Assembly (NCBI RefSeq): GCF_050920415.1
Contig: NZ_CP169309.1
DNA from: Escherichia coli
Lineage (GTDB): Bacteria; Pseudomonadota; Gammaproteobacteria; Enterobacterales; Enterobacteriaceae
Strand: one strand, 5' to 3'
DNA: 64,000 nt
Each line of letters opens with the position of its first letter. Positions within the stretch are counted from its first letter, which is position 1. Shown piece by piece: positions 1-56,091 of the stretch. The position numbers and the translations under genes were made by a program. The notes beneath the pieces were generated by a model that saw nothing but the letters and a program-made list of their open reading frames with translations, ran no database searches and had not been told where the DNA came from.

Positions 1-729
1 TTTTCGCTGGTGGCTGTTAACCTCGATCAAAAGCAACCGGGCTTCCCGGAACACGTTCTGCCCGAGTATCTTGAAAAGCTGGGCATTGAGTACAAGATTG
101 TGGAAGAGAACACTTACGGTATCGTGAAAGAGAAGATTCCGGAGGGCAAAACCACTTGCTCACTGTGTTCTCGTCTTCGTCGCGGAATTCTTTACCGTAC
201 CGCAACGGAACTGGGAGCGACGAAGATCGCGCTGGGTCACCATCGTGACGATATCCTGCAAACGTTGTTCTTAAATATGTTCTACGGCGGCAAGATGAAA
301 GGTATGCCTCCGAAACTGATGAGCGATGATGGCAAACATATTGTGATTCGTCCGCTGGCCTACTGCCGCGAGAAAGATATTCAGCGATTTGCCGATGCAA
401 AAGCGTTCCCGATTATTCCGTGCAACCTGTGCGGTTCACAGCCTAACCTGCAACGTCAGGTGATTGCTGACATGTTGCGTGACTGGGATAAACGTTATCC
501 GGGGCGTATCGAGACGATGTTCAGCGCGATGCAGAATGTGGTGCCGTCGCATCTGTGCGATACCAACCTGTTCGATTTCAAAGGCATTACCCACGGTTCT
601 GAAGTGGTTAACGGGGGTGATCTGGCGTTTGATCGCGAAGAGATCCCTCTACAACCGGCGGGTTGGCAGCCTGAAGAAGATGAAAATCAGTTGGATGAGT
701 TACGACTGAATGTGGTTGAAGTGAAATAA
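1..729 (+). CDS. ttcA: tRNA 2-thiocytidine biosynthesis protein TtcA, 3' portion (5' end outside window)
   Basis: ORF runs in from window start; translation matches TtcA C-terminal region (two CxxC pairs); stop at 727-729. Confidence 0.88.
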
Positions 730-857
730 CCCGGATAGCGCCCGATGCGCAAGCTTATCGGGCTACTCTTATGGAGGCCGGATAAGACGCGGCCAGCGTC
801 GCATCCGGCAATCCCGAAGAAGATGTTTACTCTTGCACCCTGCGATTCAACATTTCA

Positions 858-2231
858 TTATTTTAATAACCGCACCCGGCACGTTTTTCCTTTAATCTTC
901 CCGCCCTGTAACTGTTTCCATGCTTTATGAGCAACAGCCTGACGCACCGCGACATAGACATGCGCCGGATGCACGGCGATTTTGCCAATATCTGCGCCAT
1001 CAAGCCCGATATCTCCTGTCAGCGCACCTAATACATCACCCGGGCGCATTTTGGCTTTTTTCCCGCCATCGATACACAACGTTGCCATTTCTGCTTCCAG
1101 CGGCACAATGGAACTATTAACTGGCGGCGTTTGCCAGTTAAGTTTTATCTGCAACATGTCAGAAATGATATTGGCCCGCTGTGCTTCTTCCGGGGCACAG
1201 AAACTGATCGCCAGACCGCTATTTCCTGCACGCGCTGTACGACCAATGCGATGTACATGAACTTCAGGGTCCCACGCCAGTTCAAAGTTCACTACCAGCT
1301 CAAGCGATTTAATATCAAGACCACGCGCAGCAACATCCGTCGCGACCAGCACACGAGCGCTACCGTTAGCAAAACGTACCAGGGTCTGATCGCGGTCACG
1401 TTGCTCCAGATCGCCATGTAACGACAATGCACTTTGCCCTATGTCATTCAGCGCGTCGCAGACAGCCTGACAATCTTTTTTGGTATTGCAAAACACCACG
1501 CAAGAGGATGGCTGATGCAAACTTAATAACCGTTGCAACAGCGGAATTTTGCCTTTGCTGGATGTCTCATAAAATTGTTGTTCAATGGGAGGCAGAGCAT
1601 CTGTTGAGTCAATTTCAATCGCCAATGGATCGCGTTGAACTCGTCCGCTGATTGCGGTGATGGCTTCCGGCCAGGTTGCCGAAAACAGAAGCGTCTGTCG
1701 AGATGCTGGCGCAAAACGGATAACATCATCAATGGCATCGCTAAATCCCATATCCAGCATGCGATCGGCTTCATCCATCACCAGCATATTCAACGCATCC
1801 AGTGATACCGTGCCTTTTTGCAGATGGTCCAGCAAACGCCCCGGGGTTGCCACGATAATATGCGGCGCATGTTGCAACGAATCACGCTGCATACCGAACG
1901 GTTGACCACCGCACAAAGTCAAAATTTTGGTATTTGGCAGAAAACGCGCCAGCCGACGCAATTCACCTGCCACCTGATCCGCCAGTTCACGCGTAGGGCA
2001 CAGCACTAAAGCCTGGGTCTGAAATAGCGACGCATCAATTTTCTGTAGCAGCCCGAGGCCAAAAGCCGCCGTTTTGCCGCTGCCGGTTTTCGCCTGCACG
2101 CGAACATCTTTTCCGGCAAGGATCGCCGGAAGCGCGGCGGCCTGCACCGGCGTCATAGTTAAATAACCCAACTCATTAAGGTTCGTGAGTTGGGCGGGAG
2201 GCAAAACATTCAGGGTAGAAAAAGCGGTCAC
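858..2231 (-). CDS. dbpA: ATP-dependent RNA helicase DbpA (DEAD-box)
   Basis: 457 aa; GSGKT Walker A, DEAD box, SAT, HRIGRTAR motifs; apparent GTG start. Confidence 0.92.
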   Translation of the reverse strand: MTAFSTLNVLPPAQLTNLNELGYLTMTPVQAAALPAILAGKDVRVQAKTGSGKTAAFGLGLLQKIDASLFQTQALVLCPTRELADQVAGELRRLARFLPNTKILTLCGGQPFGMQRDSLQHAPHIIVATPGRLLDHLQKGTVSLDALNMLVMDEADRMLDMGFSDAIDDVIRFAPASRQTLLFSATWPEAITAISGRVQRDPLAIEIDSTDALPPIEQQFYETSSKGKIPLLQRLLSLHQPSSCVVFCNTKKDCQAVCDALNDIGQSALSLHGDLEQRDRDQTLVRFANGSARVLVATDVAARGLDIKSLELVVNFELAWDPEVHVHRIGRTARAGNSGLAISFCAPEEAQRANIISDMLQIKLNWQTPPVNSSIVPLEAEMATLCIDGGKKAKMRPGDVLGALTGDIGLDGADIGKIAVHPAHVYVAVRQAVAHKAWKQLQGGKIKGKTCRVRLLK

Positions 2232-2261
2232 AATCTGTTCTCGTGGTCATCGACGCAAAAA

Positions 2262-2435
2262 TTAGCAAGCGCGTATCCTCGCAGATCTACGCTCACGATG
2301 CGACAATTTAATCGGTTCTTCATCGGGTGGTGGGTCAGGCATGGGTTGCGGGCGAGGGATTGGATCGGGCACTGGAACAGGATCGCCAGGAATCGGTTCA
2401 GGGACAGGAATTTGCAAATAAATGAGTGTCGTCAT
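2262..2435 (-). CDS. hypothetical proline-rich small protein (57 aa)
   Basis: ATG at 2435 preceded by GGAGGG RBS; Pro/Asp-rich repeat-like peptide; too short for ORF track. Confidence 0.3.
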   Translation of the reverse strand: MTTLIYLQIPVPEPIPGDPVPVPDPIPRPQPMPDPPPDEEPIKLSHRERRSARIRAC

Positions 2436-2709
2436 ATTTCCCTCCGGTCATTGGGTGGACTCTTAAAGGGTAGACGCTGATATATAACAGGCAAAAAAAA
2501 GCCGACTCATCAAAGTCGGCGTCGTACGAATCAATTGTGCTATGCAGTAATTCAAAAAAGGAAGTAAGACAATATGGAGCGCAACGCCCATCGCTTGACG
2601 TTGCATTCACCTGCAAGAGAGATATTGCCCTGAATGGGTAGAGAGTTTATTGACTTCGCTCAAACTTTGCGGCGTTTTTGTATACAGATAGTAGGGAAAA
2701 TTGCTGTTG

Positions 2710-3714
<1,005 letters not shown>

Positions 3715-3947
3715 TTATTTTGTAGTCTAGCCTTCTGGCCCTGTTACGCAACATCTCATCACCCCATTACCCTGAAATGATTAATAAAATTCTGTCTAAA
3801 TTGAATACAAAAAGCAAAATGCTTTTCCATATACAAACCGTGTGAAGTGTTAAATAGCGTCTATCATTATCAGAATTATCTGATCATATGACGTGGCTTT
3901 TTTGCGATCGGATAGCAACAAAAATTGATAAAAATAACGGGATCTCA

Positions 3948-5180
3948 ATGATTACGCACAACTTCAATACCCTGGACTTACTCACCAGTCCTGTCTGGAT
4001 CGTTTCGCCCTTTGAGGAACAGTTAATTTATGCCAACAGCGCGGCGCGACTGTTGATGCAAGACCTCACGTTTAGTCAGCTACGAACCGGTCCCTATTCC
4101 GTCTCCTCACAAAAAGAACTACCGAAATACCTCTCCGATCTGCAAAACCAACACGATATTATCGAAATCCTCACTGTTCAACGTAAAGAAGAGGAAACAG
4201 CATTAAGCTGTCGGCTTGTTTTGCGAGAGCTGACAGAAGCAGAACCGGTGATTATTTTCGAAGGTATCGAAGCGCCGGCAACGCTGGGTTTAAAAGCCAG
4301 TCGTTCGGCAAATTATCAGCGCAAAAAACAAGGTTTTTATGCGCGCTTTTTTCTGACTAACTCTGCACCAATGTTGTTGATTGACCCCTCACGAGATGGC
4401 CAAATCGTCGATGCTAACCTCGCCGCGCTCAATTTCTATGGTTATAACCATGAAACGATGTGCCAGAAACATACCTGGGAAATTAATATGCTCGGGCGTC
4501 GCGTCATGCCTATCATGCATGAAATCTCGCATTTACCCGGTGGTCATAAGCCTTTGAATTTTGTTCATAAACTGGCGGATGGTTCGACTCGTCATGTGCA
4601 GACCTATGCTGGGCCGATTGAAATTTATGGCGACAAGCTCATGTTATGTATTGTGCATGATATTACTGAGCAAAAACGGCTGGAGGAGCAGCTGGAACAT
4701 GCTGCCCACCATGACGCGATGACCGGATTACTGAATCGGCGACAGTTTTATCACATTACCGAGCCAGGCCAAATGCAGCACCTCGCCATCGCTCAGGATT
4801 ACAGCTTATTGCTCATCGACACCGATCGTTTTAAACACATTAACGATCTCTATGGGCATTCTAAAGGTGATGAGGTGTTATGCGCCCTCGCCCGCACTCT
4901 CGAAAGTTGCGCTCGCAAAGGCGATTTGGTGTTTCGTTGGGGAGGCGAAGAGTTTGTCTTATTGCTACCAAGAACCCCACTGGATACCGCGCTTTCGCTG
5001 GCTGAAACTATCCGCGTAAGCGTGACAAAAGTGAGTATTTCGGGCTTACCACGCTTTACCGTCAGCATTGGTGTGGCGCATCACGAAGGAAATGAAAGCA
5101 TCGATGAACTGTTTAAACGCGTTGATGATGCTTTGTATCGGGCGAAAAATGATGGACGCAACCGCGTGCTGGCGGCATAA
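3948..5180 (+). CDS. dgcM: diguanylate cyclase DgcM (PAS-GGDEF)
   Basis: GGDEF domain with RWGGEEF motif; start chosen at MITHNF (410 aa) rather than upstream ATG of the 430-aa track ORF. Confidence 0.82.
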   Translation: MITHNFNTLDLLTSPVWIVSPFEEQLIYANSAARLLMQDLTFSQLRTGPYSVSSQKELPKYLSDLQNQHDIIEILTVQRKEEETALSCRLVLRELTEAEPVIIFEGIEAPATLGLKASRSANYQRKKQGFYARFFLTNSAPMLLIDPSRDGQIVDANLAALNFYGYNHETMCQKHTWEINMLGRRVMPIMHEISHLPGGHKPLNFVHKLADGSTRHVQTYAGPIEIYGDKLMLCIVHDITEQKRLEEQLEHAAHHDAMTGLLNRRQFYHITEPGQMQHLAIAQDYSLLLIDTDRFKHINDLYGHSKGDEVLCALARTLESCARKGDLVFRWGGEEFVLLLPRTPLDTALSLAETIRVSVTKVSISGLPRFTVSIGVAHHEGNESIDELFKRVDDALYRAKNDGRNRVLAA

Positions 5181-5200
5181 GCCGCGGATGCGTCTCGAGA

Positions 5201-5764
5201 TCAACGACTGCGCTTAGCGTGGCGCTCCCAGTTTTCTTGCTTTGCCTGCGCCGTTTTACGTAGTGCGACGTAACACGCCCCGCTGCCGCCATGATGCGGT
5301 AGCGCGGTACAATATGCCTGGACATCATCAAATTCGGTCAACCAGCGCGCCACATAGCTGCGGACAATATTGGCATGCGATTTATCTTCCCGCCCTTTAC
5401 CATGAATAATCAGCACATTACGCAAACCATCCGCCAGGGCTTGTTGAATGAAACTGAACACCATTTTGCGGCACTCTTCCACCGGCTGGCGCAAAAGATT
5501 CAGGCTCGCCTGTTGCGGATATTTACCACTGCGCAGCTTATCCAGCACCCCATGTTGCAACCCTTCCCGCCGAAACTCCAGCGGCTGGCTTAGCGGAATG
5601 ATGTCGAGAAATCCGGTGGTGAGGAAATTATCAAGTTGCAGCGTGTCGATACGCTGCGGCGCACGTTGGTTACGCGTTGGATGCCAGTGGACATCTGTAG
5701 CACGTTTCAGCGGCTGGACATCTTCCATGGCGTCAAGAAACAGCGATTTGTCGTCAAGGTTCAT
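5201..5764 (-). CDS. smrA: Smr-domain endonuclease SmrA (YdaL)
   Basis: 187 aa; C-terminal Smr domain (LIIHGKG motif). Confidence 0.8.
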   Translation of the reverse strand: MNLDDKSLFLDAMEDVQPLKRATDVHWHPTRNQRAPQRIDTLQLDNFLTTGFLDIIPLSQPLEFRREGLQHGVLDKLRSGKYPQQASLNLLRQPVEECRKMVFSFIQQALADGLRNVLIIHGKGREDKSHANIVRSYVARWLTEFDDVQAYCTALPHHGGSGACYVALRKTAQAKQENWERHAKRSR

Positions 5765-6093
5765 GTTACATCCTCCCGCAATTAAGAGCGCGATATGATA
5801 ACCAGACCGGGTCGGTCCAACAACGTATTACCCAAAATTCCAGTAATAAGTTCCAAATATTGCCGATATTTTAAGCAAAATGCTTATGCATGATTATTCA
5901 TTCACGATATTAATAATGTAACTTATATTTTCGTGAAATCTGTCACTGAAGAAAATTGGCAACTAAAGGTTAAAACCGTTATAACACAGTCACCGGCGCA
6001 GAGGAGACCATGCCGGATTTAAGACGCGGATGCACTGCTGTGTGTACTGTAGAGTCTGGCGGATGTCGACAGACTCTATTTTTTTATGCAGTT

Positions 6094-7002
6094 TTAACTT
6101 TGCAGATAGCCGCATTCTCGCCGAAATTGCGTGATTAATGACGCGGTCAGTGGTGTCTGGCGACTATCACGCCGCTGAATCAAATAATAGGCCGCTTTCG
6201 GTAAAATTTCGATAACCGGCAACATCACCAGCCCCTGTCCGTGCAAGGGATCGCAGCCCATTTCTTCAGGTAGTATGCTGAGAAAATCGCTTTTTGCCAC
6301 CAGACTGATACAGGCTGAAAACGTCTCGCAGACTACGCCGACCTGTGGCGTTTGCGCCTGATCGTCAAGCAATTCACTCAACTGTTTGTAGTAGCTGCCG
6401 TGTGGCGTCGGCATTGTCCAGCTGTAGTCCAGTAACTGTTTGATCGAACGGGCACCAATGGCGGGATGTCCCGGGCGGCAAAAGATCGCGAATTGCTTTT
6501 CCAGTAATTTCTCAAAAGTAAATTCGTGGTCGTAGGGTCCCTGATAATAGGTATTGATGGTGAAATCCAGTTCTCCCTGGCGCAATTCATTAATCATCGA
6601 CACCAGTTGCCCTTCCATAATGCGTACTTTTACCTGCGGATGCTGCTGATGAAAACGAGATATGACAGCTGGCATCAGACTGCGGGAAATACTGGCCCCC
6701 ATGCCGATATTAATTTGCCCTGCCAGTTGCCCTTGTCGTTGGCGAATATCCTCTTGCGCTGCGCGCAGCTCTTCAAGAATAAGACTGGCGTGCTGATAAA
6801 AACTTTCGCCGGCATCAGTTAACGTCACGCCTTTACTACGGCGAAAAAAGAGTTGTGCCGCTAACCCTTCTTCCAGCTCCTGAATAGATTTACTCAGTGC
6901 CGGTTGCGACATATTCAACATTCGGCTCGCTCCGCGAATGCTGCCCTGACGAGCCACTTCAACAAAAGCCCGAATTTGATGAATTTTTACCTGAAAAGCC
7001 AT
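6094..7002 (-). CDS. abgR: LysR-family transcriptional regulator AbgR
   Basis: 302 aa; N-terminal LysR HTH; divergent from abgABT. Confidence 0.85.
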   Translation of the reverse strand: MAFQVKIHQIRAFVEVARQGSIRGASRMLNMSQPALSKSIQELEEGLAAQLFFRRSKGVTLTDAGESFYQHASLILEELRAAQEDIRQRQGQLAGQINIGMGASISRSLMPAVISRFHQQHPQVKVRIMEGQLVSMINELRQGELDFTINTYYQGPYDHEFTFEKLLEKQFAIFCRPGHPAIGARSIKQLLDYSWTMPTPHGSYYKQLSELLDDQAQTPQVGVVCETFSACISLVAKSDFLSILPEEMGCDPLHGQGLVMLPVIEILPKAAYYLIQRRDSRQTPLTASLITQFRRECGYLQS

Positions 7003-7177
7003 GACGCCACCGATAACCGTTATTTATCAGACCAAAGAAACTGGCATCTACTTTAATGCAGATGATTGTGTCAGGGTAATTTATGAACGGTTAAAACTGT
7101 GAAAAATCAGTTAGTGATAAGTAAAAACTATCACTACGTGAACCGGGTCACATTTTTTACTGATGACGGGAAAGGTT

Positions 7178-8488
7178 ATGGAGTCTTTGAATCAATTTGT
7201 TAATTCGCTTGCCCCAAGATTATCGCACTGGCGACGTGATTTTCATCGCTATGCAGAGTCTGGCTGGGTGGAATTCCGCACAGCCACCCTTGTTGCAGAA
7301 GAATTGCACCAGCTCGGCTATTCACTGGCGCTGGGCCGCGAAGTCGTTAATGAAAGTAGTCGGATGGGACTACCTGATGAACTCACTCTACAGCGCGAAT
7401 TCGAGCGCGCTCTTCAACAAGGTGCGTTAGCACAATGGATCGCGGCTTTTGAAGGTGGTTTCACTGGCATCGTCGCCACCCTGGATACCGGTCGCCCCGG
7501 TCCGGTGATGGCTTTCCGTGTCGATATGGACGCGCTGGATCTCAGTGAAGAACGGGATGTCAGCCATCGCCCCTACCGCGACGGTTTTGCGTCATGTAAC
7601 GCCGGAATGATGCATGCCTGTGGTCATGATGGACATACCGCTATTGGGCTTGGGCTGGCGCACACCCTTAAACAGTTCGAGTCCGGACTTCACGGCGTCA
7701 TCAAACTGATTTTTCAGCCTGCAGAGGAAGGTACGCGTGGCGCGCGGGCGATGGTCGATGCAGGTGTAGTGGATGATGTTGATTATTTTACTGCCGTGCA
7801 CATTGGCACTGGCGTACCTGCGGGCACCGTGGTGTGCGGCAGTGATAATTTTATGGCAACAACCAAATTTGACGCGCACTTCACTGGTACCGCCGCTCAC
7901 GCAGGCGCAAAACCACAAGACGGTCACAATGCCTTACTGGCGGCAGCACAAGCAACTCTTGCGCTGCATGGAATCGCCCCGCACAGCGAAGGGGCTTCCA
8001 GAGTAAACGTGGGCGTTATGCAGGCAGGAAGCGGTCGTAATGTGGTTCCTGCCTCGGCGTTGCTGAAAGTTGAAACTCGAGGGGTCAGCGACGTCATCAA
8101 TCAATATGTTTTTGACCGTGCACAACAAGCGATTCAGGGCGCAGCAGCCATGTATGGTGTCGGCGTTGAAACTCGGCTGATGGGTGCAGCTACCGCCAGT
8201 TCTCCTTCGCCGAAATGGGTCGCATGGTTACAAAGCCAGGCGGCTCAGGTCGCGGGGGTCAATCAGGCCATTGAACGTGTTGAAGCGCCTGCGGGTTCCG
8301 AAGATGCCACATTAATGATGGCCCGCGTGCAGCGACATCAAGGGCAAGCCTCCTACATGGTATTTGGCACACAGCTGGCGGCAGGTCATCACAACGAAAA
8401 ATTCGATTTTGACGAGCAGGTTCTCGCTATTACCGTCGAAACGCTGGCGCGCACCGCGCTTAATTTTCCCTGGACGCGAGGTATCTGA
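7178..8488 (+). CDS. abgA: p-aminobenzoyl-glutamate hydrolase subunit A (M20 peptidase family)
   Basis: M20/amidohydrolase-like sequence; start set at MESLNQF within 441-aa track ORF. Confidence 0.85.
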   Translation: MESLNQFVNSLAPRLSHWRRDFHRYAESGWVEFRTATLVAEELHQLGYSLALGREVVNESSRMGLPDELTLQREFERALQQGALAQWIAAFEGGFTGIVATLDTGRPGPVMAFRVDMDALDLSEERDVSHRPYRDGFASCNAGMMHACGHDGHTAIGLGLAHTLKQFESGLHGVIKLIFQPAEEGTRGARAMVDAGVVDDVDYFTAVHIGTGVPAGTVVCGSDNFMATTKFDAHFTGTAAHAGAKPQDGHNALLAAAQATLALHGIAPHSEGASRVNVGVMQAGSGRNVVPASALLKVETRGVSDVINQYVFDRAQQAIQGAAAMYGVGVETRLMGAATASSPSPKWVAWLQSQAAQVAGVNQAIERVEAPAGSEDATLMMARVQRHQGQASYMVFGTQLAAGHHNEKFDFDEQVLAITVETLARTALNFPWTRGI

Positions 8489-9933
8489 TGCAGGAAATCT
8501 ATCGTTTTATCGACGATGCGATTGAAGCCGATCGCCAACGTTATACCGATATTGCTGATCAAATCTGGGATCATCCAGAAACACGTTTTGAAGAGTTCTG
8601 GTCAGCGGAACATCTGGCTTCGGCGCTGGAATCTGCAGGCTTCACCGTTACCCGCAACGTAGGCAATATCCCAAATGCCTTTATTGCTTCGTTTGGTCAA
8701 GGCAAACCGGTTATCGCCCTGCTGGGGGAATATGACGCCCTGGCAGGTTTAAGTCAGCAAGCAGGGTGCGCGCAACCTACATCCGCGACGCCCGGTGAAA
8801 ATGGTCACGGTTGCGGACACAATTTGCTCGGAACCGCCGCCTTTGCCGCAGCAATAGCCGTCAAGAAATGGCTGGAACAATATGGGCAAGGCGGCACGGT
8901 GCGCTTTTATGGTTGTCCTGGCGAAGAAGGCGGCTCGGGTAAAACGTTCATGGTCCGCGAGGGGGTATTTGATGATGTGGATGCGGCACTCACCTGGCAC
9001 CCGGAAGCCTTTGCCGGTATGTTCAATACCCGCACGCTGGCAAACATTCAGGCATCATGGCGCTTTAAAGGGATCGCAGCACATGCTGCAAATTCCCCTC
9101 ATTTGGGACGCAGCGCCCTTGATGCCGTAACGTTGATGACCACTGGCACCAACTTCCTCAACGAACATATTATTGAAAAAGCGCGCGTACACTATGCCAT
9201 CACAGAGAGCGGCGGGATCTCGCCCAACGTGGTCCAGGCGCAGGCAGAAGTGCTTTATCTTATCCGCGCCCCCGAAATGACCGACGTGCAGCATATTTAT
9301 GATCGGGTAGCCAAAATCGCCGAAGGTGCGGCATTGATGACCGAAACCACGGTTGAATGCCGCTTCGACAAAGCCTGTTCCAGTTATCTCCCTAATCGCA
9401 CCTTAGAAAAGGCCATGTACCAGGCTCTGTCCCATTTTGGAACCCCTGAATGGAAATCCGAAGAACTGGCTTTTGCGAAACAAATTCAGGCTACGCTCAC
9501 CCCCAACGATCGGCAAAACAGTCTGAATAATATCGCCGCAACCGGTGGAGAAAACGGCAAGGCTTTTGCACTACGTCATCGTGAAACGGTACTGGCGAAT
9601 GAAGTCGCTCCATATGCCGCCACCGATAACGTGCTTGCGGCATCAACTGATGTCGGCGACGTCAGTTGGAAACTGCCTGTTGCCCAGTGTTTAAGCCCCT
9701 GTTTCGCCGTCGGTACACCGCTACATACGTGGCAACTGGTTAGCCAGGGGCGAACGTCTATTGCTCATAAAGGAATGCTGCTGGCGGCGAAAACTATAGC
9801 AGCAACCACACTTAATCTCTTCATTGATTCAGGGCTATTGCAAGAATGCCAACAAGAGCATCAGCAAGTTACGGACACGCAACCGTATCACTGCCCTATC
9901 CCGAAAAACGTGACACCGTCACCTTTAAAATAA
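8488..9933 (+). CDS. abgB: p-aminobenzoyl-glutamate hydrolase subunit B
   Basis: 481 aa M20 family; start overlaps abgA stop (ATGA). Confidence 0.85.
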   Translation: MQEIYRFIDDAIEADRQRYTDIADQIWDHPETRFEEFWSAEHLASALESAGFTVTRNVGNIPNAFIASFGQGKPVIALLGEYDALAGLSQQAGCAQPTSATPGENGHGCGHNLLGTAAFAAAIAVKKWLEQYGQGGTVRFYGCPGEEGGSGKTFMVREGVFDDVDAALTWHPEAFAGMFNTRTLANIQASWRFKGIAAHAANSPHLGRSALDAVTLMTTGTNFLNEHIIEKARVHYAITESGGISPNVVQAQAEVLYLIRAPEMTDVQHIYDRVAKIAEGAALMTETTVECRFDKACSSYLPNRTLEKAMYQALSHFGTPEWKSEELAFAKQIQATLTPNDRQNSLNNIAATGGENGKAFALRHRETVLANEVAPYAATDNVLAASTDVGDVSWKLPVAQCLSPCFAVGTPLHTWQLVSQGRTSIAHKGMLLAAKTIAATTLNLFIDSGLLQECQQEHQQVTDTQPYHCPIPKNVTPSPLK

Positions 9934-9969
9934 CAACAACAACGCAAACACAACAAACGAGGAATGCCC

Positions 9970-11496
9970 ATGAGTATGTCATCCATACCGTCGTCCTCCC
10001 AATCCGGGAAGCTCTATGGCTGGGTCGAAAGAATTGGTAACAAGGTTCCCCATCCTTTTTTGCTCTTTATCTATTTGATTATCGTACTCATGGTGACGAC
10101 GGCAATTTTGTCGGCCTTTGGCGTCAGTGCGAAAAACCCGACCGATGGTACGCCAGTGGTCGTGAAAAACCTGCTCAGTGTGGAAGGATTACACTGGTTT
10201 TTACCCAATGTGATTAAAAACTTTAGCGGTTTTGCCCCACTAGGCGCGATCCTGGCGCTGGTTTTAGGTGCCGGTCTGGCGGAGCGCGTCGGCTTACTGC
10301 CAGCGTTGATGGTTAAAATGGCATCGCATGTGAATGCTCGCTACGCCAGTTATATGGTGCTGTTTATTGCTTTTTTCAGCCACATTTCTTCCGATGCGGC
10401 GTTAGTGATCATGCCACCGATGGGGGCGCTGATTTTTCTGGCGGTGGGCAGGCATCCAGTTGCAGGTTTACTGGCCGCCATTGCAGGCGTCGGTTGCGGC
10501 TTTACAGCTAATTTACTGATTGTCACAACCGACGTGTTGCTGTCGGGGATCAGCACGGAGGCTGCGGCTGCGTTCAATCCGCAAATGCACGTCAGTGTAA
10601 TTGATAACTGGTATTTTATGGCCAGCTCCGTAGTCGTACTGACGGTTGTTGGCGGCCTGATAACCGACAAAATCATTGAGCCACGGTTAGGTCAATGGCA
10701 GGGAAACAGCGATGAGAAACTGCAGACATTGACCGAAAGTCAGCGTTTTGGTTTACGCATAGCAGGTGTCGTATCGCTACTTTTTATTGCTGCGATTGCG
10801 CTGATGGTGATCCCGGTAAACGGTATATTGCGCGATCCGATCAACCACACCGTGATGCCATCCCCCTTTATTAAAGGTATCGTGCCACTGATCATTCTCT
10901 TTTTCTTTGTGGTTTCGCTGGCTTATGGCATCGCTACCCGCACAATTCGACGTCAGGCGGATTTACCGCATTTAATGATTGAACCGATGAAAGAGATGGC
11001 GGGATTTATCGTGATGGTTTTTCCCCTCGCCCAGTTTGTCGCCATGTTTAACTGGAGCAACATGGGGAAATTCATCGCTGTGGGGTTGACCGATATACTC
11101 GAAAGTTCAGGGCTTAGCGGCATCCCGGCGTTTGTCGGTCTGGCGTTGCTTTCCTCTTTCTTATGCATGTTTATCGCCAGCGGTTCCGCAATCTGGTCGA
11201 TTCTGGCCCCCATTTTCGTACCGATGTTTATGCTACTTGGCTTTCACCCGGCATTTGCGCAAATCCTCTTTCGTATTGCCGACTCATCCGTATTGCCTTT
11301 AGCGCCGGTATCTCCTTTTGTTCCACTGTTTCTTGGATTCCTGCAACGCTACAAACCAGACGCGAAACTGGGTACTTACTATTCGTTAGTTTTGCCCTAT
11401 CCACTTATCTTTTTGGTGGTATGGCTGCTGATGTTGCTGGCGTGGTATCTTGTCGGTCTGCCGATAGGTCCGGGGATTTACCCTCGTTTGTCTTAA
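9970..11496 (+). CDS. abgT: p-aminobenzoyl-glutamate transporter AbgT
   Basis: about 508 aa polytopic membrane protein; operon position after abgB. Confidence 0.85.
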
Positions 11497-11506
11497 GAGA
11501 GAACGG

Positions 11507-12022
11507 ATGCTGAGATTACTTGAAGAAAAAATTGCCACGCCACTAGGTCCACTGTGGGTGATTTGCGATGAGCAATTTCGCCTGCGGGCGGTTGAATGGG
11601 AAGAGTACAGCGAACGCATGGTGCAGTTGCTGGACATCCATTACCGCAAAGAAGGCTATGAACGCATTTCTGCCACCAACCCAGGTGGTTTAAGCGACAA
11701 GCTTCGTGAATATTTTGCCGGTAATCTTAGCATTATTGATACGCTTCCCACTGCCACGGGGGGGACGCCATTTCAGCGCGAAGTCTGGAAAACATTACGC
11801 ACAATCCCCTGCGGGCAGGTAATGCATTACGGCCAACTGGCTGAACAATTGGGCCGCCCCGGCGCGGCGCGTGCCGTAGGTGCGGCAAATGGATCGAATC
11901 CCATCAGCATTGTTGTGCCTTGTCATCGGGTCATTGGCAGAAACGGTACCATGACCGGATATGCAGGCGGAGTTCAGCGAAAAGAGTGGTTATTACGCCA
12001 CGAAGGTTATCTTTTGCTGTAA
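11507..12022 (+). CDS. ogt: methylated-DNA-protein-cysteine methyltransferase Ogt
   Basis: 171 aa; PCHRV active-site motif. Confidence 0.9.
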
Positions 12023-12183
12023 ACATTAAACAATTTGTGCCAGCTTGTTCACACTTTTATGTAAAGATACCCTTAACAACTTAAGGGTTTTCAAATAGAT
12101 AGACATATATTTACATCTAATATCGGAATTCTCTGCTGTTAAGGTTTGCTTAGACTTACTTGCTCCCTAAAAAGATGTTAAAA

Positions 12184-12197
12184 TTGACAAATATCAA
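12184..12197 (+). promoter_or_regulatory. FNR box (TTGAC-N4-ATCAA) in fnr promoter region
   Basis: ttgacaaatatcaa matches FNR consensus TTGAT-N4-ATCAA, about 20 bp upstream of fnr start; fnr is known to be autoregulated. Confidence 0.55.
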
Positions 12198-12216
12198 TTA
12201 CGGCTTGAGCAGACCT

Positions 12217-12969
12217 ATGATCCCGGAAAAGCGAATTATACGGCGCATTCAGTCTGGCGGTTGTGCTATCCATTGCCAGGATTGCAGCATCAGCCAGCTT
12301 TGCATCCCGTTCACACTCAACGAACATGAGCTTGATCAGCTTGATAATATCATTGAGCGAAAGAAGCCTATTCAGAAAGGCCAGACGCTGTTTAAGGCTG
12401 GTGATGAACTTAAATCGCTTTATGCCATCCGCTCCGGTACGATTAAAAGTTATACCATTACTGAGCAAGGCGACGAGCAAATCACTGGTTTCCATTTAGC
12501 TGGTGACCTGGTGGGATTTGATGCAATCGGCAGCGGTCATCACCCGAGCTTCGCGCAGGCGCTGGAAACCTCGATGGTATGTGAAATTCCGTTCGAAACG
12601 CTGGACGATTTGTCCGGTAAAATGCCGAATCTGCGTCAGCAGATGATGCGTCTGATGAGCGGTGAAATCAAAGGCGATCAGGACATGATCCTGCTGTTGT
12701 CGAAGAAAAATGCCGAGGAACGTCTGGCTGCATTCATCTACAACCTGTCCCGTCGTTTTGCCCAACGCGGCTTCTCCCCTCGTGAATTCCGCCTGACGAT
12801 GACTCGTGGCGATATCGGTAACTATCTGGGCCTGACGGTAGAAACCATCAGCCGTCTGCTGGGTCGCTTCCAGAAAAGCGGCATGCTGGCAGTCAAAGGT
12901 AAATACATCACCATCGAAAATAACGATGCGCTGGCCCAGCTTGCTGGTCACACGCGTAACGTTGCCTGA
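12217..12969 (+). CDS. fnr: fumarate/nitrate reduction regulator FNR (CRP/FNR family)
   Basis: 250 aa from [23 protein letters not shown]; N-terminal Cys cluster and C-terminal HTH; upstream ATG of track ORF rejected. Confidence 0.92.
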
Positions 12970-13120
12970 TTTTTCCGCATCACTCACTATCCTTCTGTCA
13001 TATCATTAAATTTTTCTGATTTATTGATCTGGCAGAAGGTTCATCACTGTTTCATTCACCAGATATGGGTTAATCTTTTAATTACAAACTGCGTTGACAG
13101 TTGTTGTAAGGAGACCCTGT

Positions 13121-14071
13121 ATGGCTATGTATCACAACATGCTCGTTGTTATCGATCCTAACCAGGACGACCAACCAGCATTGCGGCGAGCTGTTTATTT
13201 ACATCAACGGATTGGTGGCAAAATTAAAGCCTTTTTGCCGATCTATGACTTCTCATACGAAATGACCACCCTGCTCTCCCCGGACGAACGTACCGCTATG
13301 CGTCAGGGCGTCATCAGCCAACGAACAGCCTGGATCCACGAGCAGGCAAAATATTATCTCAATGCTGGCGTTCCCATTGAAATTAAAGTGGTCTGGCATA
13401 ACCGTCCATTCGAAGCCATCATTCAGGAAGTGATCAGCGGCGGGCACGATTTGGTGCTAAAAATGGCGCACCAACATGACCGTCTGGAAGCGGTGATTTT
13501 TACGCCAACGGACTGGCATCTGTTACGCAAATGCCCAAGCCCGGTGTGGATGGTGAAAGACCAGCCGTGGCCGGAAGGGGGTAAGGCGCTGGTGGCGGTG
13601 AATCTCGCCAGTGAAGAGCCGTACCATAATGCGCTCAATGAAAAACTGGTCAAAGAGACGATCGAACTGGCAGAACAAGTCAACCATACCGAAGTTCATC
13701 TGGTTGGCGCTTATCCGGTAACGCCAATTAATATCGCGATTGAACTGCCGGAATTTGACCCGAGCGTTTATAACGATGCCATTCGTGGGCAACATTTGCT
13801 GGCAATGAAAGCTCTGCGGCAGAAATTCGGCATTAATGAAAACATGACACACGTAGAAAAAGGTCTGCCCGAAGAGGTGATTCCTGATTTGGCGGAGCAC
13901 TTACAGGCGGGGATTGTGGTTCTGGGCACGGTCGGACGCACCGGTATTTCAGCAGCATTCCTTGGCAACACGGCGGAACAGGTGATTGATCATCTTCGCT
14001 GCGACCTGCTGGTCATTAAACCTGACCAGTATCAGACACCCGTTGAACTGGATGACGAAGAAGACGATTAA
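13121..14071 (+). CDS. uspE: universal stress protein E (tandem Usp domains)
   Basis: 316 aa from [10 protein letters not shown] with AAGGAG RBS; C-terminal DDEEDD. Confidence 0.9.
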
Positions 14072-14120
14072 CGACTCTTCAATAACTGACAAGGCCCGAG
14101 TTATCGGGCCTATTTTTTAC

Positions 14121-14378
14121 TTACTGCTCTTCGCCGCCAAGGAAATAAATACCCAACGGGATTGCCAGCAACACAGTAAAGACCAGGCTATAAACAAAAA
14201 TCATCGATGACTGAATCACATACATTGATGTCGTCCACTCAGACAGCGGAATATTGTACTGTTCTATAACGCCGCCGATGGTCGCGCGAGTCACAACCGA
14301 CGCCGCAATAATGAAAACCGCCAACAAACCAAAGAGAAATTTCTTCCCTTTCGCTGACTTCAGTTTCGCCATAATCAT
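14121..14378 (-). CDS. ynaJ: small inner membrane protein YnaJ
   Basis: 85 aa, two hydrophobic helices; conserved position next to uspE. Confidence 0.7.
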   Translation of the reverse strand: MIMAKLKSAKGKKFLFGLLAVFIIAASVVTRATIGGVIEQYNIPLSEWTTSMYVIQSSMIFVYSLVFTVLLAIPLGIYFLGGEEQ

Positions 14379-14621
14379 GATGTAATCCTTGTGCAGACAA
14401 ATTTCTTGTTACCTAAACGTAACAATACCATGACATTTCACCGTTGTCTGCTCTGAAAACCTCACCTCTTAGCTGGATTTACAATCAACGCATTGATTAG
14501 TTAGCTAATGTTGCTACTTCCTTCCCTGACTATTGATGATCTGAATGAATTGTCGCGGTAAAATAGCCCCGCCAGGGGTTTCCGGCATGACGACAATTAT
14601 CTGGAGGAGCCTGATAAAACA

Positions 14622-15653
14622 ATGATCGCTGAACTGTTTACAAATAATGCGCTTAATCTGGTCATTATTTTCGGTAGCTGCGCAGCATTGATTCTGATGA
14701 GCTTTTGGTTTCGCCGCGGAAATCGTAAAAGAAAAGGATTTTTATTCCATGCGGTGCAATTTTTCATCTACACCATAATTATCAGTGCTGTTGGTAGCAT
14801 CATTAATTATGTTATAGAAAACTACAAACTCCAATTTATCACTCCAGGCGTTATCGATTTTATCTGTACGTCCCTGATTGCTGTTATTCTGACGATTAAG
14901 TTATTTCTGCTGATTAATCAGTTTGAAAAACAGCAGATTAAAAAAGGTCGTGATATCACCAGTGCGCGGATTATGTCGCGTATCATCAAAATCACCATTA
15001 TTGTGGTACTTGTTTTGCTTTATGGCGAACATTTCGGCATGAGCCTTTCTGGCTTGCTGACCTTTGGTGGTATTGGTGGTCTGGCTGTTGGTATGGCCGG
15101 TAAAGATATTCTGAGTAACTTCTTTTCCGGGATTATGCTCTATTTCGACCGTCCTTTCAGTATTGGCGACTGGATCCGTTCACCGGACAGAAATATCGAA
15201 GGTACAGTAGCGGAAATTGGCTGGCGAATTACCAAAATTACGACCTTTGATAATCGTCCGTTATACGTCCCGAACTCGCTGTTTTCGTCTATCAGCGTAG
15301 AAAACCCGGGGCGAATGACCAACCGACGTATTACCACGACAATCGGTTTACGTTATGAGGATGCGGCAAAAGTGGGAGCCATTGTCGAAGCCGTACGTGA
15401 GATGCTTAAAAATCACCCGGCCATCGACCAGCGACAAACCTTACTGGTTTATTTCAACCAGTTTGCTGACTCGTCATTGAATATTATGGTTTATTGCTTT
15501 ACCAAAACCACAGTATGGGCTGAATGGCTTGCCGCCCAGCAGGATGTTTATTTGAAGATTATCGATATTGTACAGTCACACGGCGCGGATTTCGCGTTCC
15601 CAAGCCAGACGCTGTATATGGATAACATTACACCACCAGACCAGGGTCGTTAA
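14622..15653 (+). CDS. ynaI: MscS-family mechanosensitive channel YnaI
   Basis: 343 aa; N-terminal TM helices followed by MscS beta-domain-like region. Confidence 0.8.
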
Positions 15654-53149: not shown

Positions 53150-53270
53150 AATGCTCTCTCCTTTTCAGGTGATTTCTACGCATTTCAGCGCTGCCGGATT
53201 TTTAAAGAGCATTTCGTTTGCTTGAAGTATACAAAATGGATGCACCTGAACAAGGCAAAAAGCGCCATTA

Positions 53271-53286
53271 TGTGACCAAAATCACA
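53271..53286. promoter_or_regulatory. CRP-like binding site TGTGA-N6-TCACA
   Basis: tgtgaccaaaatcaca is a perfect match to CRP half-site consensus; lies upstream of minus-strand promoter-like TTGTTC-16-TATACT. Confidence 0.4.
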
Positions 53287-53308
53287 CAATGACGCCATTT
53301 TGTAAACT

Positions 53309-54067
53309 TTAGTCCGGTAAAACGCGGTTAAGCGTAGTCCGCGTGATGGCCCGGTCGTTAGCCAGGAATACAGCACGGGCGAAGCCGCGCGGCGTTAGTG
53401 ACCGGATCATCTTTGTTCGCTTTGCCCGGCCTCCGGTTTTCGCCCACCCAGGGTTATCACCAGAGTTAAGATCTACAGGTCTAAAAATCGGCTGTTTAAA
53501 TCCGTTGCCGCACCAGATGCAAGTTTTCTTCGTGTACGCGTCGCGCGCCGGGTAAACATCCGGGAAAGCAGGATGCTTGTCATCTTCCGGCAGATAGCCA
53601 CCGTAAGCGCACGGATTGAAGATAAAATCTGGTTTACGCCATAACGTTGACAGTGCTCCTACCGGATTTTCCACCATCCACGGGACGTTATACATGTCAG
53701 CCAGTGTTTCGACCAGTTTCGCGTTATATGCCGCCTTCACCTGGAAGTCAGGATCTTTTTCACGCTTGCTGGAGAACCAACGAGCGCCGGACACGGCGAG
53801 ATCGTCGCATGGTGGGAAGGCAAAAATAATGTCAGGATCTGGATAAACAGACAATTCAGGGGAGAATATTACCAGGAAATGGCTATCAATCCAGACATTG
53901 ACATATTCAATATTGGGATGAATTACTTTTACTCCGTCATAATCCCCGTGATTAGCGCCGTCATAGTTGAAGCAATAGCACTTATATCCAGCTTCAGCCC
54001 AATCTTTAACGGCGTACCCGCTGCCATCGTAAAGCGACCATACCACCCAATTTTTAAGACTGCTCAT
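53309..54067 (-). CDS. putative DNA cytosine-5 methyltransferase-like protein (short)
   Basis: 252 aa; LYDGSGYA (motif I-like), FAFPPCDDLAVSG (PC motif IV-like), MVENPVGAL (ENV motif VI-like). Confidence 0.45.
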   Translation of the reverse strand: MSSLKNWVVWSLYDGSGYAVKDWAEAGYKCYCFNYDGANHGDYDGVKVIHPNIEYVNVWIDSHFLVIFSPELSVYPDPDIIFAFPPCDDLAVSGARWFSSKREKDPDFQVKAAYNAKLVETLADMYNVPWMVENPVGALSTLWRKPDFIFNPCAYGGYLPEDDKHPAFPDVYPARDAYTKKTCIWCGNGFKQPIFRPVDLNSGDNPGWAKTGGRAKRTKMIRSLTPRGFARAVFLANDRAITRTTLNRVLPD

Positions 54068-54609
54068 CTTCTACCCTCAAACGTAAAATAGCGGCGCATG
54101 ATGATAGTAATCACCGTTACCGCTGCCATTTTTGAGATGAATTGCATAGCTGATATTTCAGGCATGAATGCCATAAACGATAGCGTAGGAAAAATTAACG
54201 CATCGCCAATGGCGGACGCTATATTTGCAGGCCAGCGTTTTGAATCGAAATCACCAGGTAAAACCCGGTAAACGCCGCCAGAAATAAGCGCACCGGAAAC
54301 AACCGCGACGAATGACGCGATCGCCACCATCCCGGCGTCGTAATTTATCAGCACCGTGATTGCGCCAGCGGCGGCGCATGTTGTAGCCGACCATTTCAGG
54401 CCGCCGTCATATAACAAGAAGTCACGAATCATCATATTGACGCACACAGCGGCTACCGTGGTGATCGGAATTACCCACGGGCCGCAATGGTTAACAATAA
54501 GATTAATGATCACGAAAACGGCGACATAAACGCAGGCTAATAACCTGTCAATTGTCACCTTTTCCATTTGGATCATACCTCTTATCGCGAATAGCTTCTG
54601 ATCTATCAA
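54064..54609 (-). CDS. YhhQ/DUF165-like membrane protein (putative queuosine-precursor transporter family)
   Basis: polytopic; DSKRWPANIASAIGDALIFPTLSFMAF resembles YhhQ C-terminal region; start uncertain. Confidence 0.4.
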   Translation of the reverse strand: MIDQKLFAIRGMIQMEKVTIDRLLACVYVAVFVIINLIVNHCGPWVIPITTVAAVCVNMMIRDFLLYDGGLKWSATTCAAAGAITVLINYDAGMVAIASFVAVVSGALISGGVYRVLPGDFDSKRWPANIASAIGDALIFPTLSFMAFMPEISAMQFISKMAAVTVITIIMRRYFTFEGRR

Positions 54610-55060
54610 ACTTCACATTAAGCCGATTAGTGGCCTCACCGTTAAACATCACAGTATGGATTGTTTTTCCTGGAATAAGCGACGGATCCGGCCCTGATAA
54701 ATCATCGTAAAGTTTTATCCCTCCGCCAATTGGGAGATCAAAAACAGCTTGTTTCTTCCTTTGTTCTTCCTCACGCTCCGTTAATATTTGTTCAGCTTTT
54801 AGTGCGCTGTAGCTAATCAAATCGATTAACGTATCAGTAGGGTCGCTTCCATTGCTTAAAATGGCCTCTAATCGCGCTTCCTTAAGGCAAATCATTAGAT
54901 CCCATACATCAAGCGGGGTTAAATCTGCTCCCTTCTTAGCGTTGTAAATAGCGGCTATTTTTGGCGCTGATTTTTCCTCTTTTTTGTCGTAGCCGTTTTG
55001 TTTGCCTCTTTGCTCTATTGTTTCCGCTGCAAGTCTTAACAAGTCTGTTGCCTTAGTCAT
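54548..55060 (-). CDS. hypothetical protein (about 170 aa)
   Basis: start at MTKATDLL overlapping Dam stop. Confidence 0.35.
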   Translation of the reverse strand: MTKATDLLRLAAETIEQRGKQNGYDKKEEKSAPKIAAIYNAKKGADLTPLDVWDLMICLKEARLEAILSNGSDPTDTLIDLISYSALKAEQILTEREEEQRKKQAVFDLPIGGGIKLYDDLSGPDPSLIPGKTIHTVMFNGEATNRLNVKFDRSEAIRDKRYDPNGKGDN

Positions 55061-55592
55061 TATTCGCACCTCTTGCATATAGCTCTTTACGTGTTATCTG
55101 CGTGAAAATACATTCATGTCTGCACCGTGGATGCCAGATTAAAAACAAGCTCCCCTTATTATTCCCGCTCGCTGGCTTACCAGTAGCGGCATTAATAAAC
55201 GCCAGCCGCCCGCGCGTAATTAATCGGCATTCGTTTGCCGTCTCCACGCCGTTCATAAACCAGCCAACAGAAATGTCGGCTGGCAATAACATTACGCATC
55301 CGATATGGTTTCGGTTGTGTTCAAGCGCCGCTTTATCAACGAATGGCCCCGGATTAGAATATGGTGGATTAAGCCAGACATACTCACCAGGCATTGCCAC
55401 CGCTCCCCACGGATAATGCAACGTGTCCATTTCTTCGGTTATATATCGCGGAACTAATGCGTTTGCTTTGTTTGCCGCCACGTCCGCGACGAATTCGAAT
55501 TCCCGATCCATTCCTCTAAAAACTGGTTTTGGCGTTTGCCATAAGTCTTTTATTTCTTTCGGCGTATGGCTGCCGCCGTAATCATTTTTCAT
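55053..55592 (-). CDS. phage DNA N6-adenine methyltransferase (Dam-like)
   Basis: 179 aa; NPPY catalytic motif in WLNPPYSN. Confidence 0.75.
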   Translation of the reverse strand: MKNDYGGSHTPKEIKDLWQTPKPVFRGMDREFEFVADVAANKANALVPRYITEEMDTLHYPWGAVAMPGEYVWLNPPYSNPGPFVDKAALEHNRNHIGCVMLLPADISVGWFMNGVETANECRLITRGRLAFINAATGKPASGNNKGSLFLIWHPRCRHECIFTQITRKELYARGANND

Positions 55593-55601
55593 TACGCCCC
55601 C

Positions 55602-55886
55602 TTAGAAATAATCCTGATCTGTTCCCCAGCGGTTATTCAGATACCCCACCAACCACACAAAACGCTCAATACTGATTAGCGGGGCGACCTTGCGATAATG
55701 CTTGTCGAGTATCAGCCGCGTGGCTTTATCGCTGTAGCCGTTCTTTTCTACCTCCGCTTTGCAGGCCGAAAGCGCGGCGCGTGCGGCAGTCTTTACGGCG
55801 TTAAATTGCGGCTCAGACATATTAAATAAAGCCATAGGATCACCATGTATCATCCCAATCCGGCGCGGCAGTCCAGCAAAAACCAA
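55602..55886 (-). CDS. hypothetical protein (94 aa)
   Basis: ORF in early-left region. Confidence 0.3.
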   Translation of the reverse strand: MVFAGLPRRIGMIHGDPMALFNMSEPQFNAVKTAARAALSACKAEVEKNGYSDKATRLILDKHYRKVAPLISIERFVWLVGYLNNRWGTDQDYF

Positions 55887-56091
55887 TGAATGCGCTCACA
55901 GCCAATAAAGCGCGGGCTGCAAAAAGAATATTCCCAATGTCGTTAAATTCAGGCAGCGACCACGTAATAAACATAGCCCCAAGCATGACAACACCGATAA
56001 CAGTCAGGGCCGCAAGGAAAACAAAAAGCGTAGCCAAAAGCCACGCCCCCAACCAGTTAAAAAAGCTCTTAAGCATTTTAAACGTCCTCAA
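55840..56091 (-). CDS. small membrane protein (two TM)
   Basis: hydrophobic helices; ends DWDDTW. Confidence 0.4.
   Translation of the reverse strand: MRTFKMLKSFFNWLGAWLLATLFVFLAALTVIGVVMLGAMFITWSLPEFNDIGNILFAARALLAVSAFIGFCWTAAPDWDDTW

Follow-up and report, generated by a model that had tools for sequence, protein, structure and literature searches.

A stretch of 64,000 nucleotides from Escherichia coli (contig NZ_CP169309.1 of assembly GCF_050920415.1), referred to throughout as the window, carries on its minus strand, between positions 53309 and 55592, a cassette of four overlapping open reading frames (ORFs): dam, a DUF6378 gene, a gene of the VUT family and a gene for a C5-methyltransferase (MTase)-like protein, here called dcm. 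An initial annotation had described this segment as a DNA-modification cluster in which two MTases flank a single membrane-protein gene. Its boundaries were exact, 53309 being the base with which the stop codon of the 252-amino-acid (aa) ORF ends and 55592 the first base of the Dam start codon; of the two genes that lie between the MTases, it had recognized the one for the membrane protein and overlooked the DUF6378 gene. Every component of the cassette comes from a known family, and the cassette itself occurs in published, annotated phage genomes. The four genes are as follows.

55053–55592, minus strand: Dam, orphan phage N6-adenine DNA methyltransferase, 179 aa (TIGR01712, PHROG 111, PADLOC)
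54548–55060, minus strand: DUF6378 protein, 170 aa counted from the ATG that overlaps the dam stop (Pfam PF19905, PHROG 9871/474)
54064–54567, minus strand: short VUT-family (YhhQ superfamily) polytopic inner-membrane protein, 167 aa (PHROG 4899, AlphaFold 2 (AF2), Foldseek)
53309–54067, minus strand: mini C5-cytosine DNA methyltransferase of the phage 'Dcm' family, orphan, 252 aa (YDGSG, PPC and ENP motifs)

Dam and the DUF6378 gene share the 8 nt ATGACTAA (read directly from the sequence), the DUF6378 and VUT genes overlap by 20 nt, and the VUT gene and dcm overlap by the 4 nt ATGA; these overlaps are consistent with the translational coupling that had been proposed. Two of the starts depend on the choice of initiation codon: the longest ORF of the DUF6378 gene begins at 55078, with the ATG overlapping the dam stop giving 54548–55060, and that of the VUT gene begins at 54609, with the ATG conserved in relatives giving 54064–54567. 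No endonuclease partner was found near either MTase, so both are orphans, again as first described.

Bases 1–15000 of the window are E. coli chromosome (the abgT-dbpA-dgcM region, 99.9% identical to a complete genome) and the rest is a prophage of the mEp021/mEpimmI group, a type carried by 34 of 5,426 complete E. coli genomes. The cassette shares 87–91% DNA identity with MagusPhagus, mEp010, mEp013, mEp044, mEp515, mEp554 and mEp021, and the mEp021/mEpimmI genomes (MH706966; PMC11893012) have the same four-gene set in the same order. In mEp021 the products are labelled putative N6-adenine MTase, hypothetical protein, putative membrane protein and putative cytosine MTase; throughout the mEpimmI records, the membrane protein is named only 'putative membrane protein' or hypothetical protein. 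Functional work on the four genes is not reported in PMC11893012.

Families of the four products

Dam is the most readily recognized of the four. It scored 141.5 bits on TIGR01712, above the curated cut-off of 97.05 (residues 7–174 aligned to profile positions 3–164 of 165), and within WLNPPYS the NPPY at residues 75–78 is the catalytic (D/N)PPY motif, which bears out the NPPY adenine methyltransferase of the initial annotation. Further matches were to PHROG 111 (E 2.5e-64) and the PADLOC orphan MTase model (E 4e-24). It was the sole cassette product recognized by PADLOC, and the exception in NCBIfam, where the three other proteins had no match. Set beside orphan phage Dam proteins (TIGR01712/PF05869), it scores above the curated cut-off, carries NPPY, is of similar size and stands without a restriction partner; we saw no notable difference, and this part of the cassette is ordinary. 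From these matches we infer N6-adenine methylation in vivo and the enzyme's sequence specificity.

The 252-aa protein had been likened to C5-MTases from its motifs, and motifs, family and fold now agree on that assignment, although the protein has no Pfam match of its own, PF00145 included, even at E ≤ 10. It matched PHROG 757 'DNA methyltransferase' (E 2.4e-87), and among 35 homologues PF00145 was matched by 3 at E ≤ 1e-3 and by 11 at E ≤ 0.1. Invariant in the alignment of these homologues are G15-S16 (motif I, YDGSG/FDGSG), P86-C87 (motif IV, PPC), E133-N134-P135 (motif VI, ENP) and a motif-IX-like segment, IRSLTPRGFA; the catalytic residues are Cys87, Glu133 and Lys180/181. About 60 residues (roughly 160–220) lie between the core and the IRSLTPRGFA segment, after which there is no canonical motif X (GN.V). 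In a profile of the family, motifs I–IV aligned weakly to DNMT3B (E 0.075), and the AlphaFold model (mean predicted local distance difference test (pLDDT) 87.6) had DNMT3A/B as its best Foldseek matches (E ~1e-6). Judged by sequence and predicted structure, the protein is a C5-MTase of compact, DNMT3-like build whose target-recognition region would be very short.

The closest studied counterpart is the 236-aa 'Dcm' of phage K42 (Drexlerviridae), which was modelled on DNMT3A with an active site of C82, E128, K175 and K176, and which is reported to make 5-methylcytosine (5mC) in multicopy single-stranded DNA (msDNA), as determined by LC-MS (liquid chromatography coupled to mass spectrometry), and to trigger retron Ec86 (preprint, bioRxiv 10.1101/2023.08.16.553469). 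The enzyme of K42 (a KarlJaspers/Bas06-like phage) and the window enzyme are both orphan mini C5-MTases of ~230–250 aa with a DNMT3-like fold and an early-region position, and their active-site spacing is identical (C82/E128/K175–176 and C87/E133/K180–181). The window enzyme differs in being offset by 5 residues at the N-terminus and in ending with a tail of ~20 aa; it also belongs to a temperate mEpimmI phage and is coupled to a VUT gene. It shares 56% identity with those family members that have 236 aa and the exact K42 numbering. By analogy, the window enzyme would be expected to form 5mC, and a sequence specificity would be predicted on the same footing. The family is widespread, occurring in 1,521 phage records by tblastn (against 21 for VUT), including Drexlerviridae, rV5-like and Klebsiella phages.

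For the membrane protein, which had been compared with YhhQ/DUF165 queuosine-precursor transporters, the superfamily stands and equivalence to YhhQ does not. The protein matched PHROG 4899 (E 1.3e-46), and its own match to Pfam Vut_1 (PF02592) was full length but weak (E 0.37–0.4). An exhaustive phmmer search returned 144 relatives (E down to 1e-21), and 49 of the 53 remote relatives that were aligned matched Vut_1 at E ≤ 1e-3. The AF2 model (pLDDT 93.3), compared with AFDB50 using Foldseek, matched models of VUT family proteins and preQ0 transporters (template modelling (TM) score 0.75–0.86, E 1e-6 to 1e-3). Six family-invariant residues are kept (N22, G29, D49, D122, F131 and K146), along with R48, N115 and Q142. 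The YhhQ models TIGR00697 and NF008406 were not matched, nor was any NCBIfam model; several relatives do match TIGR00697 or NF008406, at 20–39 bits, below the curated cut-off of 50.95. On this evidence from profiles and predicted structure, the membrane protein is a divergent member of the VUT superfamily and not a YhhQ equivalog. It shares with E. coli YhhQ (COG1738, TIGR00697; a preQ0 transporter) the superfamily, the fold and conserved polar intramembrane residues, whereas the YhhQ models span ~201–221 positions against its 167 aa. Any substrate that it transports is putative. Single-sequence searches of the membrane protein and the C5-like protein against PDB sequences gave nothing useful, and a profile of the VUT alignment matched only Tim22 in the PDB, which we dismissed as chance.

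The DUF6378 protein matched Pfam PF19905 (E 7.1e-8, residues 13–96 to model positions 2–79 of 81). RefSeq names it 'DUF6378 domain-containing protein', and a homologue search returned close relatives only, every one under that same name and none with a functional name. It also matched PHROGs 474 and 1167, whose 'phosphofructokinase' label is likely a propagated misannotation.

Conservation of the cassette and the DpdA partner

Related loci are numbered L001 onwards; those gathered with a narrow VUT alignment were mostly near-identical mEpimmI loci. In the large majority of mEpimmI-like loci the genes run Dam-DUF6378-VUT-Dcm, an order counted in 46 IMG/VR loci and also found in the divergent contig L003, where protein identity is 53–67%. 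Ratios of non-synonymous to synonymous substitution (dN/dS, Nei–Gojobori) were 0.043 for VUT, 0.054 for Dam, 0.087 for Dcm and 0.25 for DUF6378. Because the order is kept across relatives and all ratios are well below 1, the four-gene arrangement is not due to chance. Of the four genes, that for DUF6378 is under the weakest constraint; it varies in C-terminal length and, in several relatives (L037–L040, L051), is broken up into two or three ORFs; in the mEpimmI group it always accompanies the VUT gene.

The VUT gene and dcm differ in persistence. Whereas dcm is intact in 40 of 48 informative relatives and lost or broken in the other 8 (replaced by an HNH-AP2 endonuclease in 2, absent in 1, frameshifted in 2 and deleted across Cys87 and Glu133 in 3), the VUT gene is intact in every copy (49/49). 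Dcm is thus dispensable, and the VUT gene, intact while dcm is lost or broken and low in dN/dS, is a working gene whose function needs no Dcm. In view of its low dN/dS and its 49 intact copies we rejected a decaying relic, and in view of the loss of dcm in 8 of 48 relatives, with VUT kept, a functional VUT–Dcm pairing. We also considered DpdM-type methylation of preQ1 by the MTases, and rejected it because DpdM belongs to the unrelated DUF3109 fold.

At two IMG/VR loci (L017:4501–5028 and L029:4501–5028), a 175-aa HNH-AP2 homing-endonuclease ORF stands in the place equivalent to window 53309–54067; it overlaps the VUT stop by ATGA, just as dcm does, and of dcm itself no more than the final 27 codons is left. 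Weaker homologues of the endonuclease occur elsewhere in L044, L049, L058 and L059.

Short VUT proteins of PHROG 4899 are rare in isolated phages. By tblastn we found them in only 21 records, 7 of which are mEpimmI phages; the other 14 represent nine distinct phages (PEAT2, AB3P2, the Opt-719 group, LHE71, Lg3, RCIP0319, Phc, ECO111 5-P and Tbat1_6). In all nine, the VUT gene adjoins or overlaps a DpdA-like gene, and these DpdA-like genes are mutually homologous and match PHROG 887 'queuine tRNA-ribosyltransferase'. The same adjacency was seen in five metagenomic contigs with remote VUT relatives, with a weak match in two. Elsewhere, phage CAjan carries a yhhQ/VUT gene inside a 7-deazaguanine DNA-modification cluster (PMC7544227); its YhhQ is more distant and was not matched at E < 1e-3 by the window VUT search. 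Hutinet et al. suggested that phages with DpdA only might depend on imported precursors.

The pairing with DpdA forms a recurrent two-gene cassette (L012–L016, L068–L071, L008 and L072–L075) of a PHROG 4899 VUT gene and a PHROG 887 DpdA-like gene, usually overlapping. It occurs in Drexlerviridae, Peatvirus, Obolenskvirus and metagenomic phages, where preQ0-synthesis genes were not seen nearby and the genes are mostly annotated 'hypothetical'; a literature search found no paper naming both 'DpdA' and 'VUT family'. In LHE71 (Tunavirus; L015:172–905), the pair lies ~2 kb from a Dcm-family gene that is seemingly split into two overlapping ORFs and may be frameshifted or mis-sequenced.

The initial annotation had reported no DpdA/TGT-like gene, and a dedicated search using tblastn and a hidden Markov model (HMM) built from 5 sequences, the same HMM that picks up the VUT-adjacent DpdA in 14 other loci, likewise found none in the window. 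Nor was DpdA found in bases 1–53347 of the 54396 of MagusPhagus (98% of this complete genome), or in L001, in the divergent contig L003 or, within 4 kb either side, in 46 IMG/VR mEpimmI-like loci. The L005/L062 lineage and the large-phage loci L009/L064–67 also have a VUT gene and no DpdA found in the flanks. In total, DpdA was not found near the VUT gene in three phage lineages other than that of the window. Genes for preQ0 synthesis are not named in the mEp021 and MagusPhagus annotations or among the PHROG matches of the window's early region, which were read without a dedicated HMM search. Because no DpdA was found by this search, we predict no 7-deazaguanine in the phage DNA, a prediction that the NdeI restriction patterns obtained with mEpimmI DNA (PMC11893012) weakly fit.

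The window protein resembles the VUT proteins of the VUT–DpdA pairs in its PHROG, its fold, its sequence (27–36% identity) and its early-gene position. The cassette differs from the CAjan cluster and from these pairs in that DpdA was not found and preQ0-synthesis genes are not named, and also in that the gene next to VUT encodes a C5-MTase, with an HNH endonuclease in its place in some relatives. The window VUT most likely descends from, or is sister to, the DpdA-linked importers. The DpdA-less and DpdA-adjacent proteins differ at the following VUT positions.

Positions 36–37: T-T in DpdA-less; N-A in DpdA-adjacent
Position 44: N in DpdA-less; D or E in DpdA-adjacent
Position 123: mostly A in DpdA-less; S in DpdA-adjacent
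Position 149: non-Gly in DpdA-less (A in 3/7 loci; A in the window clade); G in DpdA-adjacent

These differences could mark a switch in specificity or coupling, confounded by shared ancestry: the DpdA-less sequences probably form one clade, so the residue set counts as a single correlated change with no independent replication. Proximity of an orphan VUT gene to a DNA MTase is not confined to the window cassette. In the L005/L062 lineage (L005:6516–7363, L062:4480–5327), which is also DpdA-less, the VUT gene is followed by two paralogous PHROG 2510 genes and then by an N6_N4 DNA methyltransferase.

Functions proposed for the cassette

From what was observed of gene identities and folds, of synteny and of purifying selection, together with the missing DpdA and a dispensable dcm, we consider that the cassette is probably a set of independent early functions lying side by side in an mEp021-type prophage. 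It does not appear to be one modification pathway, because DpdA was not found, dcm is lost with VUT intact, and the Dcm family occurs without VUT in ~1,500 phages. The base-modification context at which the initial annotation had hinted has a basis in the relatives of VUT, which adjoin DpdA in nine of nine other phages and five contigs, but the reading of this cassette as a single pathway is unsupported. Under the proposed set of independent functions, Dam and the mini C5-MTase would use S-adenosylmethionine (SAM) to methylate replicating phage DNA during lytic growth, yielding N6-methyladenine and 5-methylcytosine, and this methylation would help the phage to escape restriction when it enters new hosts; in a relative, a Dcm-type enzyme is reported to be able, as a side effect, to set off retron Ec86. 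The 167-aa membrane protein would be a functional VUT/YhhQ transporter, most likely derived from an importer of 7-deazaguanine bases, that may take up a base resembling preQ0/preQ1, or a related small one, to serve some end outside DpdA-dependent DNA modification. A shift of substrate is possible, since the clade has D44N, S123A and G149A at otherwise conserved positions.

Several points weigh against this interpretation. The overlaps and the order kept in at least 46 loci and in the contig of 53–67% identity are also compatible with functional coupling. A transglycosylase that is very divergent or not homologous would escape both tblastn and an HMM built from 5 sequences. The link to the K42 enzyme is one of family membership and matching residue numbering, not of alignment to the K42 sequence. 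Finally, E. coli has its own YhhQ and synthesizes preQ1 de novo, so that the gain from a second importer is not obvious.

That redundancy also tells against a possible but distinctly less probable account in which VUT serves translation: by taking up more preQ0, preQ1 or queuine, it would enable host Tgt to maintain full queuosine (Q) modification of tRNA during phage development, with the MTases as unrelated neighbours. Such a role accords with the retained VUT fold and six family-invariant residues, with the transport of preQ0 by characterized members of the superfamily (PMC6884629) and with the proposal by Hutinet et al. of tRNA-Q boosting for phages that have Q-pathway genes and no DpdA; the three changed positions of the DpdA-less clade hint instead at a changed substrate. 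The same substitutions could suit a protein that is no longer a transporter and keeps the VUT fold as a small inner-membrane effector, for example in superinfection exclusion or interference with a host permease, as could its short five- or six-helix form, its lack of a partner enzyme and its place next to host-takeover genes, ipe among them, in an early operon. We regard this as unlikely, since N22, G29, D49, D122, F131 and K146, which are invariant and include polar or charged intramembrane residues, are kept with R48, N115 and Q142, and a dN/dS of 0.04 over the whole length fits a conserved transport site.

A unified pathway, in which VUT imports a precursor base, one of three candidates (DUF6378, the Dcm-like protein, an enzyme of the host) installs it in phage DNA or processes it there, and the MTases act on the same DNA, appears very improbable. 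The tight overlaps and kept order, the very strong purifying selection on VUT despite the lack of DpdA, the constant company of DUF6378 in the mEpimmI group and the coupling of VUT relatives to DpdA wherever checked outside the DpdA-less clade all speak for it. They are outweighed in our view by the missing DpdA homologue, by a dcm that is dispensable and replaceable while VUT persists, by a Dcm family that acts alone in ~1,500 phages and has a member reported to make plain 5mC, by the small size, relaxed constraint and frequent fragmentation of DUF6378 and, weakly, by NdeI patterns that argue against bulk replacement of G. Still less credence goes to the variant in which the orphan VUT marks a DpdA-independent modification of DNA or RNA bases, with Dam-DUF6378-VUT as one module and the imported base installed by an unrecognized enzyme (DUF6378 or of the host). 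For the VUT protein alone, we accordingly rank import of a preQ0/preQ1-like or shifted substrate outside DNA modification first, followed by the tRNA-Q boost, a non-transport role and a DpdA-independent modification route. Least probable of all, and scarcely credible, is that the 252-aa enzyme transfers a non-methyl group (for example, carboxymethyl from host Cx-SAM, as in CmoX-type enzymes) or acts on RNA: a family member is reported to make 5mC by LC-MS (preprint), the enzyme shares only 14% identity with 8yf3, which is no nearer to it than DNMT3 is, and the phage is without a cmoA partner.

Taken as first written, the locus would be a routine anti-restriction cassette of a published phage group. 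To this our analysis adds a family assignment for a membrane protein that public records call 'hypothetical' or 'putative membrane protein', and a link between the 252-aa enzyme and the retron-triggering phage Dcm family, which predicts that hosts bearing Ec86 would sense induction of the prophage. It also adds a contrast between short phage VUT proteins, almost always coupled to DpdA, and one partner-less subclade under very strong purifying selection with three changed residues. Through this contrast, the cargo of VUT transporters, and the reason for a phage to import it, become tractable questions.

Transcriptional setting and neighbouring features

Three further features bear on the expression of the cassette or lie next to it.

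53261–53296, minus strand: terminator-like hairpin with a 16-pair stem and T run, 13 nt past the dcm stop (pattern scan; counterpart of mEp021 t4)
55602–55886, minus strand: homologue of mEp021 'ipe' (inducer of pleiotropic effects; PHROG 303, function unknown; mEp021 gene 29)
56024–56050, minus strand: terminator-like hairpin upstream of the cassette (pattern scan; equivalent of mEp021 TERM_3, t3 counterpart)

The mEp021 record has a terminator annotated at the place equivalent to the hairpin past dcm, the site at which t4 and nutR2 have been placed, and in mEp021 the four genes sit between the predicted terminators t3 and t4 with nutR2 just downstream (PMC11893012). From this arrangement, the cassette would belong to an N-antiterminated early operon, and the timing of its expression is predicted by analogy with the mEp021 literature. 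A resting lysogen may then not express the cassette, and a comparison of methylomes between lysogen and cured strain could be uninformative. The hairpin at 56024–56050 marks the start of the transcription segment; the ipe homologue lies directly upstream of dam within the same terminator-bounded segment, as context outside the modification genes.

The window contains no tRNA genes and ends inside the replication region of the prophage. A LexA-like repressor gene (61089–61736, minus strand) and a replication-initiator gene (62300–63400, plus strand) are divergent. Genes for recombination, modification, lysis and structure, together with the nin and Q genes, all run on the minus strand; mEp021 has been described as having this non-lambdoid layout.

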